Shown: positions 3,692-11,113, counted from the stretch's first letter. The stretch is 11,113 nt of DNA from an uncultured Clostridia bacterium (GCA_944372665.1 CALVZV010000048.1:1-11113), one strand, 5' to 3'. Notes: generated from the letters alone by a model not told the origin. Numbers and translations: made by a program.

Positions 3692-6600
3692 CTATCTGTT
3701 CACGGGCGCCAGCTTTACGGTGACGGTACGGTCCTGGATCGAGAACGACTGTTCCGCTTCAGGCGACTTTACGTCACCCGTTTCGCTTGCCAGAATATCG
3801 GCGGCGATCTTGTCGCGGTATTTTTCTATCGCTTGCAGCGCGAACTCGTCTTCGGTTTCGAACGACGCCACAATGCGTTGTTCGACGGCGAAGCCCGCTT
3901 CCTTTCTCATGACCTGGATAAGCCTTATCAATTCTCTTATAAAGCCTTCCGCGGCGAGTTCGTCGTCCAGTTCCGTATCCAGCGCAAGCGTGATCTCGGC
4001 GTCTTTGGCGACGACGAAATGCTCTTTGGGTCTGAAGTGGCGATCGAACAGATCGGCTCCCAGTCCGCTGAAGTCGCCGATGTCCACGCTGTCTGCGGCT
4101 ACGGCTTTGTCCAACGCGGCGAAGCCCGCATTGTCCAGCGAATCGACCAGCTTTTTAAGGCGCTGCGCTTCGCCTTTAAGCCTTGCGCCGGCAACCCTGA
4201 AATTGACGGTGAAATAAACGTCGTTGTATGCCGTTTCGTCGGCGGTAAAGCTAAGCTTTTTGACGTTGAGCTCCTCCTTTATCACGTCCGCCAGCGGCAA
4301 AGCGGCTTCCTTCACGCCGTCGGGAGCGGTGACAAACAGATTTTTCAAGGGCTGTTTGACCTTGATCTGCGCTTCGTTGCGCATACGCTGCGCGGCGGCG
4401 ATTATACGGCGCGCGGTCACGGTTTCTTCAAGCACCGTCTTGTCTTCGGGAATTTCAGCCGGGACGGGATAATCCGTCAGATGCACGGATTCGGGAGCGT
4501 CCTTTTCGATCTCGCGTACTGTGTTTTGATATATATAATCGGTTATAAAGGGCGTGATGGGCGCCATAATTCCGATAACCGACTTCAGCGCGAAATACAG
4601 CGAAGCGTACGCGTTCATCTGGTCGAGTTTGTCGGTCGATTTCCAGAATCGCTTACGGTTGATACGTATATACCAGTTGGATACGTCGTCCACGAACACT
4701 TCGAATTCCTTTATCAGGGCGGGATGACGGAAAGTATCCATGGCGTTACGCGCGAACTTAATAAATTCGTTGGTGCGCTGCAGCAGCCATTTGTCGGAAT
4801 GTTTCAGCGAAGCGTAATCGAGCTTGTGAGCCGCTATATCGGGGTTGTCGATGGAGGCGTACAGATTAAAGAAAACATATATGTTCCAGAATCCCAGTAT
4901 CTTTCTTCTGGCCTCGTCCGCAAGCGAATATCCGAAACGCACGTCCGAAGCGATAGGATTGGACATAAACAGATATCTGACTGTATCCGCGCCCATCTTT
5001 TCCGCCGCGTCGTCGAAACGGATCATATATCCCGTCTTGCTGAATTTGCCGCCGTCTTCCTTTATGACGCTGGAGTGCGCGACAACCTGTTTATAAGGCG
5101 CCTTGCCGGTCAGTGCGACCGACATGAACAGCAGCGAATAGAACCACAGTCTGATCTGCTCTTTCATCTCGATGACCAGGTCGGAGGGGAAATTGTTTTC
5201 GAAATACTCCTTGTCCTCGAAATATTTTTTGGTCGAGAACGGCGTAATGCCCGCGTCCAGCCAGCAGTCGCCCACTTCGGGGATCCTTTCGACCGGCTCT
5301 CCGCACTCTTCGCAGTGGATCCTGATCTTGTCTATATATGGTTTATGCAGATGCGGCACGCCGTCTATGTTGCCGTGCTCGCTGCGCATGATAAGCTCTT
5401 CCTTGCTGCCGATGACCGTAACGTGTCCGCACTTTTTGCAGACATAGAACGGCAGCGGCAAACCGTAGAAACGCTTGCGGCTTATATTCCAGTCGCCCAT
5501 ATTGTTCAGCCAGTCCAGCATCCTCTTTCCCGCATATTCGGGTTCCCATTTCACGGTTTTGGCTGCCTCAATCATCATCGGACGGATTTCGGAAGTGTCG
5601 ATGTTCCACTCGTCCACCAGTTTGAACACCACGGGAGTCTTGCACCTCCAGCACTTGGGATAGCTGTGGGTGTACATTTCGGTTTTGTACAGTTTGTTCT
5701 GCTTTTCGAGTTCGTTCACTACGTCGTCCACGAGGTCGGTGGTTTTCATGCCGCTGAAGCGGCCGAATCCCTCCGTGATTACGCCTTCGTCGTCTATGGG
5801 GCAGATAGCCGGAATACCGTTTTTCCTGCCCAGTTCGAAGTCCTCGGCGCCGCAGCCGGGAGCGATATGCACCACACCCGTGCCTTCCGTAGCGTCGACG
5901 TCCTCCCACGCGTAAATTTTATGAGTAAAGTTCTGAACTCCGAATCCGGGGAAGCAGGTCTCGTATTCCCTGCCCACCAGCTCGGCGCCCTTGAAAGGTT
6001 CTCCGACTTCGACGATGTCGCCCTTTAATTTTCCCAGGGCGTTCTTGCCGACGATGAGCGGCGAAGTATCGGACTTGACTTTCACGCGTACGTATTCGAT
6101 TTCGGGGTTTACCGCAAGCGCCGCGTTCGCGGTCAGAGTCCACGGGGTGGTCGTCCATAAAATTATCTTGTCTTCAGTTCCCTTCACGGGAAGCTTGGCA
6201 AATATCGACAGATGCTCCATTTCCGCATAGGAGCCGCTCATTTCGTGATCGGAAAGGCTGGTTCCGCAGCGCGGGCACCAGGGCATCGGACGATGCGATT
6301 TCTTTATCCAGCCGCGCTCGGCGCATACCTTCAGAAAATGCCATATCGACGTGATGTTCAGATCCGTGTTCGTGAAATAGCTGTGTTCCCAGTCCATCCA
6401 TTGTCCAAGACGCTTGGACTGTTCCGTGATGACGCCGGCGAATTTTTTTACGCGGTCCATGCACTTTTCGGTGAACCTGTCGACTCCGTAATTGACTATG
6501 TCGGATTTGACCTTGAATCCGAGGTCCTTTTCGGTTTCCACCTCCACCCACAGTCCCTGCGAGTCAAATCCGTTCTGGTACTGACAGGACTTGCCGAGCA

Positions 6601-6817
6601 TGGCGTTGTAGCGGATATACATATCCTTCATCGTCCTGCCCCAGGCGTGGTGTATGCCCATCGGATTGTTGGCGGTTATCGGTCCGTCCAAAAAGCGGAA
6701 GCGTTCGCCGTTCTCGTTCTTTTTGACGAGTTTTACAAAACAAGCGTTCTTTTCCCAGAACGCAAGCATCTGTTTTTCGATTTCGACAAAATCTGTTTTA
6801 GCGTTTTCCTTTCTCAT
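3692..6817 (-). CDS. ileS: Isoleucine--tRNA ligase, type 2 (eukaryote-like, no C-terminal zinc finger), ~1041 aa
   Basis: CP1 editing-domain signature WTTTPWTLTAN is specific to IleRS (LeuRS and ValRS have TTRP[DE]T). The IleRS-specific motif DWNISRKRFYGLPLP matches the DWCISRQRYWGVPIP-type consensus. The anticodon-binding WYIRINRKRFW motif is present. KFSKT stands in the KMSKS position and PMGIHHAWGRTMKD in the HIGH position. The start is set at ATG 6817 (MRKENAKTDFVEIEKQMLAFWEK…), the usual IleRS N-terminus. The six-frame-track ORF extends to 7165 but overlaps the divergent lipoprotein gene and has no start there. Confidence 0.9.
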   Translation of the reverse strand: MRKENAKTDFVEIEKQMLAFWEKNACFVKLVKKNENGERFRFLDGPITANNPMGIHHAWGRTMKDMYIRYNAMLGKSCQYQNGFDSQGLWVEVETEKDLGFKVKSDIVNYGVDRFTEKCMDRVKKFAGVITEQSKRLGQWMDWEHSYFTNTDLNITSIWHFLKVCAERGWIKKSHRPMPWCPRCGTSLSDHEMSGSYAEMEHLSIFAKLPVKGTEDKIILWTTTPWTLTANAALAVNPEIEYVRVKVKSDTSPLIVGKNALGKLKGDIVEVGEPFKGAELVGREYETCFPGFGVQNFTHKIYAWEDVDATEGTGVVHIAPGCGAEDFELGRKNGIPAICPIDDEGVITEGFGRFSGMKTTDLVDDVVNELEKQNKLYKTEMYTHSYPKCWRCKTPVVFKLVDEWNIDTSEIRPMMIEAAKTVKWEPEYAGKRMLDWLNNMGDWNISRKRFYGLPLPFYVCKKCGHVTVIGSKEELIMRSEHGNIDGVPHLHKPYIDKIRIHCEECGEPVERIPEVGDCWLDAGITPFSTKKYFEDKEYFENNFPSDLVIEMKEQIRLWFYSLLFMSVALTGKAPYKQVVAHSSVIKEDGGKFSKTGYMIRFDDAAEKMGADTVRYLFMSNPIASDVRFGYSLADEARRKILGFWNIYVFFNLYASIDNPDIAAHKLDYASLKHSDKWLLQRTNEFIKFARNAMDTFRHPALIKEFEVFVDDVSNWYIRINRKRFWKSTDKLDQMNAYASLYFALKSVIGIMAPITPFITDYIYQNTVREIEKDAPESVHLTDYPVPAEIPEDKTVLEETVTARRIIAAAQRMRNEAQIKVKQPLKNLFVTAPDGVKEAALPLADVIKEELNVKKLSFTADETAYNDVYFTVNFRVAGARLKGEAQRLKKLVDSLDNAGFAALDKAVAADSVDIGDFSGLGADLFDRHFRPKEHFVVAKDAEITLALDTELDDELAAEGFIRELIRLIQVMRKEAGFAVEQRIVASFETEDEFALQAIEKYRDKIAADILASETGDVKSPEAEQSFSIQDRTVTVKLAPVNR

Positions 6818-6911
6818 GCCGCCTATTTTAGCACATATAAAACGTAAAGTAAAATAATTTATATAATTTGCACGTTTTAAAGGGGCACGCCGCGCTCCGG
6901 AGTCAGATGCG

Positions 6912-6940
6912 TTGACAAAAAGCGCCGGAACGGATAAAAT
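6912..6940 (+). promoter_or_regulatory. Consensus sigma-A promoter TTGACA-17-TAAAAT directly abutting the lipoprotein ATG (leaderless geometry)
   Basis: ttgaca at 6912-6917, an exact 17-nt spacer, taaaat at 6935-6940, then atcagat ATG (6948). The -10 to ATG distance is 7 nt. Confidence 0.6.
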
Positions 6941-6947
6941 ATCAGAT

Positions 6948-7433
6948 ATGAAAAAATTTCTCGGCTTGGTTCTGATATGCGTGCTGTGCGTTTCCACGGC
7001 GTACCTCGCGCTTGCGTGCAAACGCTCCGAACCTTCCGACGGCGATATCGCCGAAACGGTCTGCGAACACGATTTCGTCGCCGCGGAAAGCGAGCTGAAC
7101 CGCCCCGCCACGCATACGTCCGAAGGCAGACAATACGTCGTTTGTTCTAAGTGCGGTTTTTCCAAACTCGAAATAATCCCGAAACTCGGCTATGAGTCCG
7201 GAGACAAAGCTCCCGAGTTCAATCCGCTTCTGGACGCTTACGAAGGCGTGCCCGCCCGGACGACCTTTAAACAATTCACGGAAAAATACCTTCCTTCGGG
7301 CTGGGCGTTTAAAAACGAAGACGCCGGCGCCGCGATCGCCGACGGCGAATACCTGCTCGTCTTTACCCCGACGACGGAAGGATATACGCCTTTCGAATCT
7401 ACGGTCACGATAAAAACAAGGAGTCCGGAATGA
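6948..7433 (+). CDS. Putative lipoprotein (signal peptide MKKFLGLVLICVLCVSTAYLALA|C), 161 aa
   Basis: N-terminal K-rich n-region, hydrophobic core, and a Cys after …LALA (lipobox-like). The stop TGA overlaps the next ATG in an ATGA arrangement. The upstream TTG at 6912 used by the ORF track is the promoter -35 itself, so the ATG at 6948 is preferred. Confidence 0.65.
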   Translation: MKKFLGLVLICVLCVSTAYLALACKRSEPSDGDIAETVCEHDFVAAESELNRPATHTSEGRQYVVCSKCGFSKLEIIPKLGYESGDKAPEFNPLLDAYEGVPARTTFKQFTEKYLPSGWAFKNEDAGAAIADGEYLLVFTPTTEGYTPFESTVTIKTRSPE

Positions 7434-8236
7434 AACTTCCATCTGGCAAAACGGTTGTGATAACCGGCGCTACCGCCGGTATAGGCAAAGCGCTCCGCGA
7501 ACTTTACGAAAAAGCGGGGAACGTCGTCGTCAATATTTCCAGGCACGCTCCCGAAAGTTTGTCGGATTATGCCGCCGACATCGCCGACCGCGAAAGAATC
7601 GAGGCGATAGTCGAGGACATAGGCAAGCGTTTCGGAAAGATCGATATATTGATCAACAACGCGGGATACGGACAATCGGGTCCCCTGGAGCTGATTCCGG
7701 ATACCGAAATCAGAAAGATCACGGACGTCAATTTCTTGGGAGCGGTATGGCTGACGCGCGCGGCGATAAAGCATATGCCGCCCGGATCCGTCATCGGTTA
7801 CGTGTGCTCCGTCGGCAGCATAATCCCCATGCCCTACCGCACCATGTACGCGGCTACAAAAGCCGCTTTGGGCAGTACGGCTTTCGGGATGCGAATGGAG
7901 CTAAAGCCTTTGGGCATCAAGGTATGCGCACTTTACGTCGCGGCGGTCAAGACCGATTTCGCCGCACACCGCGAAAAAATACAGGTCAGCGAAGGGAAGT
8001 ATTTCAAGGCTTTATCGGGAACGGACAGATTTATCGACGACAAAGGCGGCAAGAACGCGACGGGAAAACTTACGCCGGAAAGCGCGGCGATCAAAATGGC
8101 TAAAGCGCTGGCGCGGAAACGTCCTAAAGCCGAAAAGCTTATAGCCACTCCGGCATATTTTATGATATATCCTCTGGCGAAATTCTCCCCCGGACTCGCC
8201 ATTTCGATAATCGAAAAGGTTTTCGGTGCACGCTGA
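7430..8236 (+). CDS. SDR family NAD(P)-dependent oxidoreductase (classical short-chain dehydrogenase), 268 aa
   Basis: TGATAGIGKA (TGxxxGxG cofactor motif), NNAG, and YAATKAA (catalytic YxxxK). AAGGAG SD 7 nt upstream of the ATG. Translationally coupled to the lipoprotein gene via the ATGA overlap. Confidence 0.9.
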   Translation: MKLPSGKTVVITGATAGIGKALRELYEKAGNVVVNISRHAPESLSDYAADIADRERIEAIVEDIGKRFGKIDILINNAGYGQSGPLELIPDTEIRKITDVNFLGAVWLTRAAIKHMPPGSVIGYVCSVGSIIPMPYRTMYAATKAALGSTAFGMRMELKPLGIKVCALYVAAVKTDFAAHREKIQVSEGKYFKALSGTDRFIDDKGGKNATGKLTPESAAIKMAKALARKRPKAEKLIATPAYFMIYPLAKFSPGLAISIIEKVFGAR

Positions 8237-8250
8237 AAACGCGCATCCTC

Positions 8251-8290
8251 AAAAAAACCCGCCTCCGGGCGGGTTTTGAATTTATTTTTT
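8251..8290. terminator. Bidirectional Rho-independent terminator shared by the convergent SDR (+) and 8282-9025 (-) genes
   Basis: aaaaaaa-CCCGCC-tccg-GGCGGG-ttttgaatttatttttt: a GC stem with an A-run on one side and T-runs on the other. Confidence 0.8.
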
Positions 8291-9025
8291 CTTTTTCGCT
8301 TCTTTTTCCGCTGCGATGCTTTTTTCCAGATATTCGCCTAAAGCCGTCATCTTCTCCTCAAGATAGCATGTTATGCGCTCAGTTTCCTGTTTCAGGGGCG
8401 CTTCGGGGTCGAATACGGTAGGCTCGCCCATCACCACGCGGCGCGATTTCGGATCGCAATAGCTGGGATAGAATTTCAGTATCTTGCCGGTTTCTTTATA
8501 ATAATAGTACGCCGAGTACGCGAAACCGCGCTGAAAACGCTTTAAATACTTGTTCATCGGCGTATCTTTGGTTTCGGGCGTGATCATCACTTTATTGCCT
8601 TCTTTCAGCGCTTTTACGGTGGCGTTATACGTTTCCCTGACTCTAAGATCGTGCCACGCGGGAATGGTGTCATAGCTGACGAAATAGAGATTTATCAAAG
8701 GCATCAGGATATATGCCAGCGGCATCAGAAAGCCCAGCTTGGTTACTTTGGCAAGCACGTTCTTGAAATGGTCTATTCCGTCTTTATAAGTTCTGAGCTT
8801 GGCGTTCGACCAGAAATTGAGCTTGTCGCCGTAAAACAGCTCGTATGCGAACGGCGCCTGAAGCGTGGTGTGATTGCACAAGATTATGCATGGCTCGCTC
8901 GGCTTTTCCACCAGGAATTCAAACGTGGCTTTTCTGGCGAAAAAACCTATCGTCTTGTTCAAGCACGTAGCGAATTTACCGTATTTTCTTTTATTAAAGT
9001 TAAGTTTAGCCATCTGCACATACAA
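8282..9025 (-). CDS. Hypothetical protein with weak lysophospholipid-acyltransferase (PlsC/LPLAT)-like motifs, 247 aa
   Basis: CNHTT… loosely resembles the HX4D block but lacks the Asp. VMITPETKD loosely resembles FPEGTR. A hydrophobic segment (LGFLMPLAYILMPLINLYF) is present. No SD before either candidate ATG (9025 or 9013). Likely co-transcribed with the upstream cytidylate-kinase-like gene, since no terminator lies between them. Confidence 0.35.
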   Translation of the reverse strand: MYVQMAKLNFNKRKYGKFATCLNKTIGFFARKATFEFLVEKPSEPCIILCNHTTLQAPFAYELFYGDKLNFWSNAKLRTYKDGIDHFKNVLAKVTKLGFLMPLAYILMPLINLYFVSYDTIPAWHDLRVRETYNATVKALKEGNKVMITPETKDTPMNKYLKRFQRGFAYSAYYYYKETGKILKFYPSYCDPKSRRVVMGEPTVFDPEAPLKQETERITCYLEEKMTALGEYLEKSIAAEKEAKKKK

Positions 9026-9092
9026 AAAACAGTTTATTTACCGCAAAGATCAAAGCATCGGATTCCGGCAGTTTGCAAAGTCAAAAAGGCGA

Positions 9093-9701
9093 TCAGGATT
9101 TATTTTCCTTGAACCACCCTTCCGCATAGGCTTTCAAGCCGTCGATCAGCTTGTCTATATCGGCTCCCGCCGTATTTACCATCAGATTATACCCGCGCCT
9201 GTCGCCCCAGCGTATCGGCGCAAACGTGTCGTGCGTTTTGCGTCTGCCGGCGTCTATCTGTCTGCATTTCCTCAATATCTGTCTGTCCGTCGCCTCGGGA
9301 TGCAGCTCGCCCCTTTCCCTGCACCTTCTGATTTTATGCTCGGGATCGGAATACACAAATATCTTCAGCGGATTCTTCTTGGCAAGAATGATATCGCCCA
9401 TGCGCCCCACGATAACGCAGTCGCGTTTTTCGCTCAGCGCGGTAATCACCTTATGCTGCGCCGCCAGCACGTCTATGGCGGGCTGATTTATCGAAAAACC
9501 GAAAGTCCGTCCGTAGTGGAAATTGAAACTGACCGCGCCGTCGGAAACCTTGTCTATGAAACCGGCGTCGTAATCGGTATGCCTGACGATCTCCTTGATG
9601 ATCTCGGAATCGTAATAAGCAAATCCCAGCGCTTCGGCGAGTTTTTTACCAAGCTCCCTGCCGCCGCTTGCAAATTCTCTGGATACGGTTATTATACGCA
9701 T
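9093..9701 (-). CDS. Cytidylate kinase-like family protein (PF13189-type P-loop NTPase), 202 aa
   Basis: MRIITVSREFASGGRELGKKLAEALGFAYYDSEII matches the Cytidylate_kin2 N-terminal signature (IItIgReyGSGGreigkkLAekLg.pyyD.eli). ATG at 9701 is preceded by GGGAGA with a 6-nt spacer. The six-frame-track ORF's TTG at 9716 is rejected in favour of this ATG. Confidence 0.75.
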   Translation of the reverse strand: MRIITVSREFASGGRELGKKLAEALGFAYYDSEIIKEIVRHTDYDAGFIDKVSDGAVSFNFHYGRTFGFSINQPAIDVLAAQHKVITALSEKRDCVIVGRMGDIILAKKNPLKIFVYSDPEHKIRRCRERGELHPEATDRQILRKCRQIDAGRRKTHDTFAPIRWGDRRGYNLMVNTAGADIDKLIDGLKAYAEGWFKENKS

Positions 9702-9729
9702 ACCTGTCTCCCGCAATTATGTTTTTATT

Positions 9730-9744
9730 ATGTATAGAATACAT
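9730..9744. promoter_or_regulatory. Perfect palindrome ATGTAT-aga-ATACAT ~30 bp upstream of the cytidylate-kinase-like ATG (candidate operator)
   Basis: Direct reading: 6-bp arms with a 3-bp spacer, located between the SD and the likely promoter of the minus-strand gene in the divergent intergenic region. Confidence 0.3.
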
Positions 9745-9849: not shown

Positions 9850-9878
9850 TTGAAATTTTTTTTCCGTGCATGTATAAT
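9850..9878 (+). promoter_or_regulatory. Strong sigma-A promoter TTGAAA-17-TATAAT for the membrane-protein gene
   Basis: ttgaaa at 9850-9855, an exact 17-nt spacer, tataat at 9873-9878 preceded by TG. ~38 nt upstream of the ATG at 9916. Confidence 0.65.
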
Positions 9879-9915
9879 AATTATATTGCAAAAATTTGTG
9901 AAACGGAGGTTTATA

Positions 9916-10442
9916 TGGCTAAAAGTAAAGCTACTTCTGTAAATACCCGCAACGATACCGTTATGGCGGCGCTGGCGTTTATAATCCTCGGCACCATTCT
10001 GGTAGCTGAAAAATCGCTTAATGTGTTAAAACTTGCCGTAATCGTGTTCGGCGTCGCGCTGCTCACCTTGGGTTTATTGGAACTCATAAACCGTAACCTG
10101 ATAGTCGGACTGGCGGAAATAATCGTGGGCGTCGCATTGATAATCATGGCGGCTCTGGTACCGGACATAGCGACGCTGGTGCTTGGAATAGCGCTGTGCC
10201 TTTACGCCATCTATTTCCTTATAATATATTGGAGCTCCCTGACCGGCGGCAAACTCACGCTCAGAAAGGTCATCATTATTCTGCTGATACTGTTCGCGTT
10301 TATTGCAGGCATCCTGCTGATAGTCGAATACTGTGTCGGCGTAGGCGCGGATCTGTGGATCTCCGCAGGCGCGTTCTCTCTGGGAGCAGGTGCTATGCTC
10401 ATTCTCAAGAAATTCGTTTCCGAAGTCAACAGCAAAAAATAA
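9916..10442 (+). CDS. Small polytopic membrane protein (about 5-6 short TM helices, internally repetitive; possibly DUF308/HdeD-like), 175 aa
   Basis: GGAGG SD 6 nt upstream of the ATG at 9916 (MAKSKATSVN…). The ORF-track start at 9870 lacks an SD. Successive ~20-aa hydrophobic segments are rich in small residues (G/A) and Ile/Leu/Val. Confidence 0.7.
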
Positions 10443-10460
10443 AAATAGTTCAAGCTTTAA

Positions 10461-10528
10461 AAGCCGAAGCCTGCGCTTCGGCTTTTTTGTTGCATGTATC
10501 AGCACGAGCACGCCTTCGTGCTTTTAAA
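10461..10528 (+). terminator. Tandem Rho-independent terminators after the membrane-protein gene
   Basis: Hairpin 1: AAGCCGAAGC-ctgc-GCTTCGGCTT followed by TTTTTTG (10461-10489). Hairpin 2: AGCACGA-gcacgcct-TCGTGCT followed by tttaaatatt (10501-10530). Confidence 0.8.
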
Positions 10529-10549: not shown

Positions 10550-10741
10550 TACCCGACAAAGGCGCCGAACGGGTATTTTGACCGAAAACGCGGAAAAGAC
10601 GCTTAAAGCGCGCATGGATTTTTTGCACATTTTAACTACCTTATAAAATAAAAAAACGATAGAACTTCTATCGTAATTTTACCTATTTCGCCCGACAGAC
10701 GCGTTCGGTCTGTCTGTTCTATACTAGTGTGCAAAAAATCT
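10550..10741. repeat. Copy 1 of a ~192-bp tandemly duplicated non-coding module. Contains a 13-bp inverted repeat pair (GATTTTTTGCACA 10617-10629 / TGTGCAAAAAATC 10728-10740) enclosing two hairpins.
   Basis: Direct base-by-base comparison with 10840-11031: identical over 10550-10716, then 3 mismatches (10717, 10724, 10727), then identical to 10741. Internal palindromes: CGATAGAA-c-TTCTATCG (10657-10673) flanked by an A-run and a T-rich run; GACAGAC-gcgttcg-GTCTGTC (10694-10714); ACCCG-n14-CGGGT (10551-10574). Confidence 0.9.
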
Positions 10742-10839
10742 CACAGATGTCGTGTGCGGCTTGAAAGAACGCGTCGGCAGCGATTTAACGCGAATTTTTC
10801 GATGATTTCGCTCAAAACGCCGACCGAGGAGTATCCGGA

Positions 10840-11031
10840 TACCCGACAAAGGCGCCGAACGGGTATTTTGACCGAAAACGCGGAAAAGACGCTTAAAGCG
10901 CGCATGGATTTTTTGCACATTTTAACTACCTTATAAAATAAAAAAACGATAGAACTTCTATCGTAATTTTACCTATTTCGCCCGACAGACGCGTTCGGTC
11001 TGTCTGCTCTATAATATTGTGCAAAAAATCT
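10840..11031. repeat. Copy 2 of the ~192-bp module (offset +290 bp), with the same 13-bp inverted repeat pair at 10907-10919 and 11018-11030
   Basis: See copy 1. 189 of 192 positions are identical. Sequence diverges immediately outside both ends. Confidence 0.9.
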
Positions 11032-11113
11032 GAAAAGTCGAACAGATTGTTAAGAAGCGAGAAAGATTTAGGCACTCGGCATGACCCGTTAGTGCGACTC
11101 GTTTGCACGAGCC

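Follow-up and report, generated by a model that had tools for sequence, protein, structure and literature searches.

We consider it fairly probable that the two direct repeats near the right end of the window (the whole stretch of 11,113 nucleotides analysed here) are intrinsic terminators, arranged in tandem and partly bidirectional, that lie in the 3′ flank of an unlinked 16S rRNA gene. The gene would lie just beyond the window on the minus strand and would be transcribed leftwards into the repeats, and it is because of this direction of transcription that we read the repeats as a terminator region. Each terminator also sits inside a perfect inverted repeat that a plain terminator does not explain; apart from this enclosing element, a doubled stop signal behind a 16S gene would be ordinary.

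Anatomy of the Repeat Units

A repeat search over the whole window found a direct-repeat family of 192 nt with two members, copy 1 at 10550–10741 and copy 2 at 10840–11031, which are 98% identical, start 290 nt apart and are separated by a 98-bp spacer (10742–10839). In the sense of the predicted 16S gene (minus strand), copy 2 is the proximal unit and copy 1 the distal one, with model matches of 163 bits over 10906–11031 and 159.6 bits over 10616–10741, respectively. In both copies a pair of 13-bp arms, GATTTTTTGCACA / TGTGCAAAAAATC, is 100% complementary and stands 98 nt apart. The left arm was located by the repeat search at 10617–10629 in copy 1 and 10907–10919 in copy 2, and the right arm is found at 10728–10740 and 11018–11030. 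With up to 2 mismatches allowed, the arm motif occurs four times in the window where 0.46 occurrences are expected, a count reached by 0 of 200 shuffles. The three differences between the copies (10717/11007, 10724/11014 and 10727/11017) all fall within 11 nt to the left of the right arm.

Between the arms are the palindrome ACGATAGAAcTTCTATCGT, referred to here as hairpin A (10656–10674 and 10946–10964), and hairpin B, GACAGAC-n7-GTCTGTC (10694–10714 and 10984–11004), which is apparent in the sequence and in the terminator scan. Sequence and folds also give a hairpin C, TACCCG-n14-CGGGTA, followed by TTTT on the plus strand, at the left edge of each unit (10550–10575 and 10840–10865). Read in the 16S sense, the order in a unit is 5′ arm (the right arm), hairpin B, hairpin A, the U-tract UUUUUUAUUUU and 3′ arm (the left arm, past the U-tract), and beyond the 3′ arm each unit has a small G+C hairpin and UUUU before hairpin C.

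This anatomy is as described in the original prediction, from the two copies, their identity and spacer to the perfect arms and the two hairpins. Its finer points also held, with all three mismatches gathered beside the inverted repeat and the right edge of the direct repeat coinciding with the outer end of the right arm. The module had further been called structured and non-coding, and the 192-bp unit folds better than all shuffles on either strand (z = −3.2 and −4.0). ORFs of 59–69 aa do overlap the repeat stretch, and six-frame translations of unit and trailer (stop-free, concatenated) had no match in a predicted-protein collection of 5.8 billion clusters, in keeping with the earlier judgement that no ORF here is credible. 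A possible minus-strand small peptide (AAGGTAG-n6-ATG, MCKKSMRAL...) was set aside, as neither its start nor its frame is kept in the related contigs L088 and L031. The Rfam 15 covariance models gave no hit inside the units even at E ≤ 1 and none in the window at gathering score, and a tRNA search of the window found none.

Organism and Neighbouring Genes

The window carries a class I isoleucyl-tRNA synthetase (IleRS) gene (3692–7165, minus strand) whose closest relatives among species-representative genomes, with identities of up to 90%, come from uncultured Clostridia MAGs and 'Candidatus Stercoripulliclostridium'. Because these relatives are Clostridia, sigma-A promoters and Firmicute biology apply to the locus, and a Bacteroidetes-type promoter reading was dropped for the same reason. 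Further along lie an SDR gene (7430–8236, plus strand) and, facing the repeats, a plus-strand gene at 9870–10442 for a hydrophobic, membrane-protein-like product of 190 aa with 30 homologues and no Pfam family. This convergent gene has its own strong intrinsic terminator at 10459–10486 (plus strand), which was found as an inverted repeat and by the terminator scan, with an A-tract before it, a T-tract after it and a folding energy of −17.7 kcal/mol. The scan also showed a second plus-strand hairpin with a T-run at 10501–10525. Exact copies of the 190-aa gene are found on three other contigs. Homologues of at least 90% identity and those of the L031 type are syntenic, and those of 67–78% identity sit in unrelated neighbourhoods; the position of this gene beside the 16S gene would therefore be a recent one. 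Extra loci were sought through these homologues, and about five informative lineages were obtained.

Some observations on the neighbouring genes are recorded here in their own right. The IleRS ORF is 1157 aa long with a TTG start, and its residues 1–100 (window 6860–7165, minus strand) are matched only in its two nearest relatives, L004 and L031; in other homologues the alignment begins at residue ~102–117. The true start is probably about 300 nt downstream, leaving an unannotated leader, and no T-box or other Rfam family was detected in that stretch. Directly downstream of the IleRS gene, L031 has two copies of Gut-1 RNA (RF01706) on the minus strand, at 8940–9013 and 9148–9219 (62 and 56 bits; gathering score 50), and the equivalent stretch of the window gave no match to this family at a cutoff as loose as E ≤ 0.05. 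A 287-aa ORF at 8874–9737 (plus strand) runs antisense to two conserved minus-strand genes, 8282–9025 (247 aa) and 9093–9716 (207 aa; related contigs have a counterpart with the annotation cytidylate-kinase-like). The 287-aa ORF is unlikely to be a gene, since its tblastn matches are weaker shadows of those of the minus-strand genes. L031 also has ~1.1 kb extra between the unit and the 190-aa gene, without an obvious gene, and at ~540–830 it shows by eye the short direct repeats GGGACTTCAATCTAAAGACCGCAT and TGTATCTTGTCGCCATG, twice each.

A Predicted 16S rRNA Gene beyond the Window

The original prediction pointed to the sequence past 11113 as a place to look for an adjacent gene, and this sequence could be viewed through the relative L031. 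L031 is syntenic with the window, sharing the IleRS gene (83% identity), the SDR gene and the 247-aa, 207-aa and 190-aa genes. Window positions 11035–11107 align to L031 54–125 with 89% identity over ~75 nt (E = 2e-21). About 36 nt further on, in window orientation, the L031 contig ends with ...AAAGGAGGTGATCCAGCC, the reverse complement of GGCTGGATCACCTCCTT. The latter is the 3′ terminus of bacterial 16S rRNA with the anti-Shine-Dalgarno, and it occupies L031 positions 1–17 in the window's minus-strand sense. Across all relative loci searched, GGCTGGATCACCTCCTT at no more than 1 mismatch was found at this end of L031 and at one unrelated site only. Because the L031 homologue of the trailer runs into the 16S 3′ end, we infer that a minus-strand 16S rRNA gene ends about 30 nt past 11113 and is transcribed leftwards into the repeats, which would make 11032–11113 (the window end) its 3′ trailer. 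The placement draws on one relative and on a pattern of contig ends, and the gene itself lies outside the window.

The trailer contains a boxA-like element, CGCTTCTTAACAA, on the minus strand at 11047–11059, which agrees at 10 of 13 positions with the E. coli rrn boxA consensus TGCTCTTTAACAA. A trailer hairpin differs by a compensatory change between the window (GGCTCGTGCAAACGAGTC) and L031 (GGCTTGCATACGCAAGTC).

In nine independent assemblies the contig breaks off within this region or shortly past it, as expected beside a multi-copy rRNA gene. In window coordinates, the window and L001 end at 11113, L002 at 11030 and L003 at ~10714; L004, L090 and L091 end at the palindrome, L088 ends just past the right arm, and L031 ends inside the 16S gene. 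A multi-copy rRNA neighbour would thus explain why assemblies in this lineage break at this point. L004 (1–43), L090 (930–971) and L091 (3658–3701), three assemblies of a species whose 190-aa homologue is 90% identical, stop within 3 nt of one another at the A-run just before the palindrome. The sequence from that A-run towards the 16S gene must be repeated in this genome, and the repeated stretch could be a second unit or other 16S copies that share the trailer as far as the terminator.

Neither the window nor L031 gave an Rfam match to 23S or any other rRNA, and the ~11 kb past the inferred 16S end are thus free of such genes. The convergent protein gene begins no more than ~700 nt from that end, and protein genes fill the space. 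A 16S gene has been classed as unlinked when no 23S gene occurs within 1500 bp past its 3′ end (PMC8178347, citing bioRxiv 10.1101/705046), and unlinked rRNA genes have been reported in herbivore-gut Clostridiales (PMC8178347). By the 1500-bp criterion the 16S gene at this locus appears to be unlinked, conditional on its inferred position. This flags an unlinked 16S gene in an uncultured group of herbivore- and bird-gut Clostridia for which such arrangements are little documented.

Putative Tandem Terminators

The terminator scan, which covered both strands, flagged both palindromes on the minus strand, ACGATAGAAGTTCTATCGT followed by the tail TTTTTTTATTT, in agreement with the earlier reading of the palindrome as a minus-strand intrinsic terminator by sequence. 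In copy 2, hairpin A has the 8-bp stem ACGAUAGA-AGU-UCUAUCGU with a fold of −7.5 kcal/mol and is followed by its U-tract at 10935–10945; in copy 1, found by the repeat search and the terminator scan, the U-tract is at 10645–10655. The orientation of the tract is clear. In the 16S sense, U6AU4 comes directly after each palindrome (U7 if the closing U of the stem is counted), giving 10 U in 11 nt. On the plus strand, A7 precedes hairpin A and AAUUUUACC follows it, which gives a weak terminator in reverse. Because of this A-tract before and short U-tract after on the other strand, we regard hairpin A as weakly bidirectional.

Hairpin A and its 16S-sense U-tract are kept in L002, L088 and L031, although the sequence of the stem differs. 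The changes in L002 are in the loop, L088 reads CGATAGGAATTCCTATCG and has gained one G-C pair, and in L031 the palindrome is an unrelated one, AGTTCATTCGaaCGAATGAACT, with a T7 run after it in the 16S sense. In an alignment fitted to the covariance model, with L031 as the diverged lineage, both partners have changed in six of the 8 pairs of hairpin A. The original prediction had proposed covariation as a check on the structure; it was found in these pairs and in 5 of 13 pairs of the closing helix formed by the arms, and all of it comes from the L031 lineage, through an alignment fitted to the model.

If this reading is correct, RNA polymerase would leave the 16S gene, cross the conserved trailer with its boxA-like element and meet cassette 2 first, and on read-through cassette 1 would act as a back-up terminator. 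In each cassette the palindrome would fold into an 8–9-bp hairpin which, with the U-run on the 16S-sense strand, would bring about intrinsic termination at the predicted site. On the opposite strand hairpin A might also put a weak block in the way of read-through from the convergent gene at 9870–10442.

Some points count against the terminator reading. The stem is weak, with 8–9 bp, only 3 G-C pairs and −7.5 to −9.6 kcal/mol compared to −17.7 kcal/mol for the terminator of the neighbouring gene, and it is odd that a boxA-like antitermination element should stand directly before a terminator. The reading also leaves unaccounted for the arms, the near-invariant hairpin B and the conserved sequence past the U-tract.

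The Enclosing Inverted Repeat and Alternative Explanations

The arms pair at 13 of 13 positions in both window copies and in copy 1 of L002, and at 12 of 13 in L002 copy 2. At the orthologous position L031 has a perfect 18-bp pair, TTGATTTCTTTGCCGAAA / TTTCGGCAAAGAAATCAA, with its arms 96 nt apart; compared to the window it has one extra (inserted) C-G pair and at least 3 other changes made on both sides. Across the closing helix, 96% of cells in the alignment are paired, against 36–46% when the partners are slid. The arms thus covary in L031 as a paired element, as they had been taken to be, and they appear to be selected for pairing. L088 is the exception, with degraded arms (TTTTTTTCAC vs. 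GTGCAAAAAAGT). Hairpin B is invariant save for one loop change in the window, L002, L003 and L088 and is not clearly present in L031, which has another, 11-bp hairpin at the place of hairpin C.

One explanation for this pattern takes the unit as a structured RNA domain of the 16S 3′ external spacer, with the closing helix and hairpins B and A making up a single functional RNA; this might be a stable small RNA cut from pre-16S, or the helix could be an RNase III fail-safe acting on read-through. We regard this as unlikely. In its favour, 4 of 6 copies have a perfect closing helix and L031 keeps its 18-bp perfect helix by changes on both sides, more cells are paired than with slid partners, hairpin B is near-invariant among close relatives, and each strand folds better than every shuffle. 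However, the 3′ arm comes after the U-tract in the 16S sense, and for this reason the closing RNA helix is possible only in read-through transcripts of the predicted terminator. Besides the degraded arms of L088, no Rfam family matches, the window and L031 have no conserved promoter in common, and perfect inverted repeats are equally typical of DNA-level elements. The evidence on the strand conflicts as well, with the arms of L002 copy 2 pointing to the plus sense and hairpin C to the minus sense; an attempt to identify the transcribed strand from G-U versus C-A patterns was dropped, as the events were too few and contradictory. An independent small-RNA gene, which was one side of the original prediction, finds no favour here given the absence of an Rfam match or a conserved promoter and a 16S gene transcribed into the repeats.

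A related suggestion is that the terminator together with its enclosing repeat forms a conserved functional RNA or DNA device in the 3′ spacer of unlinked 16S genes of this Christensenellales-like lineage, which we hold to be unlikely. A polymerase modified for antitermination would pass hairpin A, and the arms would then pair into a helix of 13–18 bp. RNase III might enter at this helix and cut the read-through transcript, giving fail-safe termination, or the helix might release a stable small RNA derived from the spacer; alternatively, the arms might bind a protein roadblock. A perfect inverted repeat is as compatible with a role at the DNA level as with an RNA helix, and an RNase III-type helix for fail-safe termination or processing is our leading speculation on what the arms do. 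Should the helix help to control read-through or to process the spacer, this would add a little to the picture of how bacterial rRNA transcription ends, and the RNase III version would be a bacterial counterpart of the RNase III-assisted fail-safe termination behind eukaryotic rRNA genes. If the helix has no role, the locus is an ordinary one.

The 13-bp arms bound a non-coding segment of 124 bp and so have the form of terminal inverted repeats on a short element, and the original prediction had accordingly likened the module to a MITE. A MITE or an immobile remnant of one, inserted behind the 16S gene and carrying a terminator, would account for the perfect terminal repeats (13 bp; 18 bp in L031) of a small non-coding unit and for the sharp right boundary at the end of the direct repeat. 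We nonetheless think it very unlikely. No target-site duplication is seen in the flanks, which read CATG|...|TGAA and CATG|...|TCAC in the window and GGTA|...|TCCC in L031, the duplicated unit is 192 bp and not the 124-bp repeat-bounded segment, and the L031 copy sits at the orthologous position. Further copies, for which a BLASTN search had been suggested, were absent both from the 11-kb window and from 1.45 Mb of ~80 related genomes searched by blastn and covariance model, so no dispersed copy came to light. The covariance model of the 124-nt element, run over all related loci, found L031 at 29.7 bits; weak model matches in L068, L071, L066 and L011 were rejected as ordinary gene-end terminators, with the A-tract, hairpin and U-tract producing the match. 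Searches further afield gave no match to the unit in plasmid and phage collections by blastn, none to an exact 48-mer of the unit in genome contigs, none to a 20-mer of the conserved trailer or to the hairpin-B pattern (21 specified bases) in metagenome contigs, and none to the hairpin-B pattern in viral contigs. The six-frame translations of unit and trailer, which might have picked up copies on contigs with spurious ORF calls over them, likewise turned up none.

The perfect inverted repeats could also belong to an invertible switch whose 98-bp core turns over between the arms and so reverses an asymmetric terminator, as at cwpV of Clostridioides difficile. The arms do flank a terminator that is strong one way and weak the other, and identity of the arms is what recombination sites require, but the core has the same orientation in all 7 complete and all 4 cut-off copies from ~5 strains or species, no recombinase is found among the window genes (such enzymes can also be encoded at a distance), and there is nothing downstream to switch on, merely the antisense of the convergent gene, leaving this reading extremely unlikely. 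Tandem plus-strand sigma-70-type promoters (TTTGCA-16-TAAAAT at 10622–10649 and 10912–10939), after the manner of rRNA P1/P2, are hardly credible even though a scan gives an identical 9/12 match in both copies: L031 shows a 16S gene pointing into the repeats, so that the units lie downstream of its 3′ end and not upstream and could make antisense 16S RNA only, the '-10' is the complement of the terminator U-tract, and neither L088 nor L031 keeps the hexamers as such.

History of the Duplication

The relatives give some indication of the course of the duplication. The strain L002, which matches the window at 96.9% identity over 1.27 kb, has two units with the same spacer, but the identity between these two is only 84.6%. 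The 16S-proximal unit of L002 is closer to the partial unit of the L004/L091 species, with which it shares 96.4% identity. L031 has one unit only. The spacer of the window aligns collinearly with the sequence left of the L031 unit with a score of 28 (shuffles: mean 16.0, sd 2.3, max 27), and it is probably the ancestral left flank of the unit, which suggests that spacer and copy 2 keep the ancestral layout and that copy 1 is the addition.

Because the copies of L002 are 84.6% alike, the duplication would be older than the 98% identity in the window implies. It would predate the window strain, with the 98% identity reflecting later homogenisation or re-copying, or else there has been recombination in L002. 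A local duplication of the 192-bp unit may have provided the second cassette, with the copies then homogenised, or the second re-copied, in the window strain. The original prediction had named a simple recent local duplication of a terminator region as the alternative that would count against it; a terminator region is what we favour, and it is the word recent that does not agree with L002. On this account the locus would offer a clear natural example of a terminator cassette that was copied behind an rRNA gene and whose copies were later homogenised.

Comparison with Known Systems

A close parallel is rrnB of E. coli, in which the tandem Rho-independent terminators T1 and T2 stand behind the rRNA transcription unit. 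Both loci would have two terminators of the hairpin and U-tract type in series directly behind an rRNA gene and in the rRNA sense. The terminators of our locus are predicted from sequence and are copies of one 192-bp unit, whereas the E. coli pair are unrelated to each other; here, they would follow a lone 16S gene and not a 16S-23S-5S operon, and around each lies a long-range inverted repeat of 13 bp.

Intrinsic terminators that work in both directions between convergent genes are the topic of, e.g., bioRxiv 10.1101/2022.10.23.513370. Hairpin A resembles such elements in being flanked by an A-tract and, opposite it, a U-tract, and in lying between the plus-strand gene at 9870–10442 and the minus-strand 16S gene. 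It differs in its strong asymmetry, with 10 U in 11 nt in the 16S sense compared to 4 U in the opposite one, and in that the convergent gene already has its own strong terminator at 10459–10486. Surveys of unlinked rRNA genes (PMC8178347, bioRxiv 10.1101/705046) treat an arrangement like the one seen here, where no 23S follows the inferred 16S end; their subject is gene arrangement and not the 3′ flank or its terminators.

The enclosing inverted repeat brings two other systems to mind. The first is yeast, in which the RNase III enzyme Rnt1 cleaves a stem in the 3′-ETS and this cleavage is coupled to Pol I termination. There, as here, a long helix is found in the spacer directly behind an rRNA gene, and the likeness is one of analogy only, since the yeast system is eukaryotic and any cleavage of our helix or coupling to termination is hypothetical. 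The second is the Correia-type MITEs of Neisseria, small repeats that can have terminator or promoter activity and whose transcribed ends can be RNase III substrates. Like these, the element described here is non-coding, ~100–150 bp long and bounded by terminal inverted repeats; unlike them, it showed neither target-site duplication nor dispersed copies in our searches, and its position is orthologous across species.
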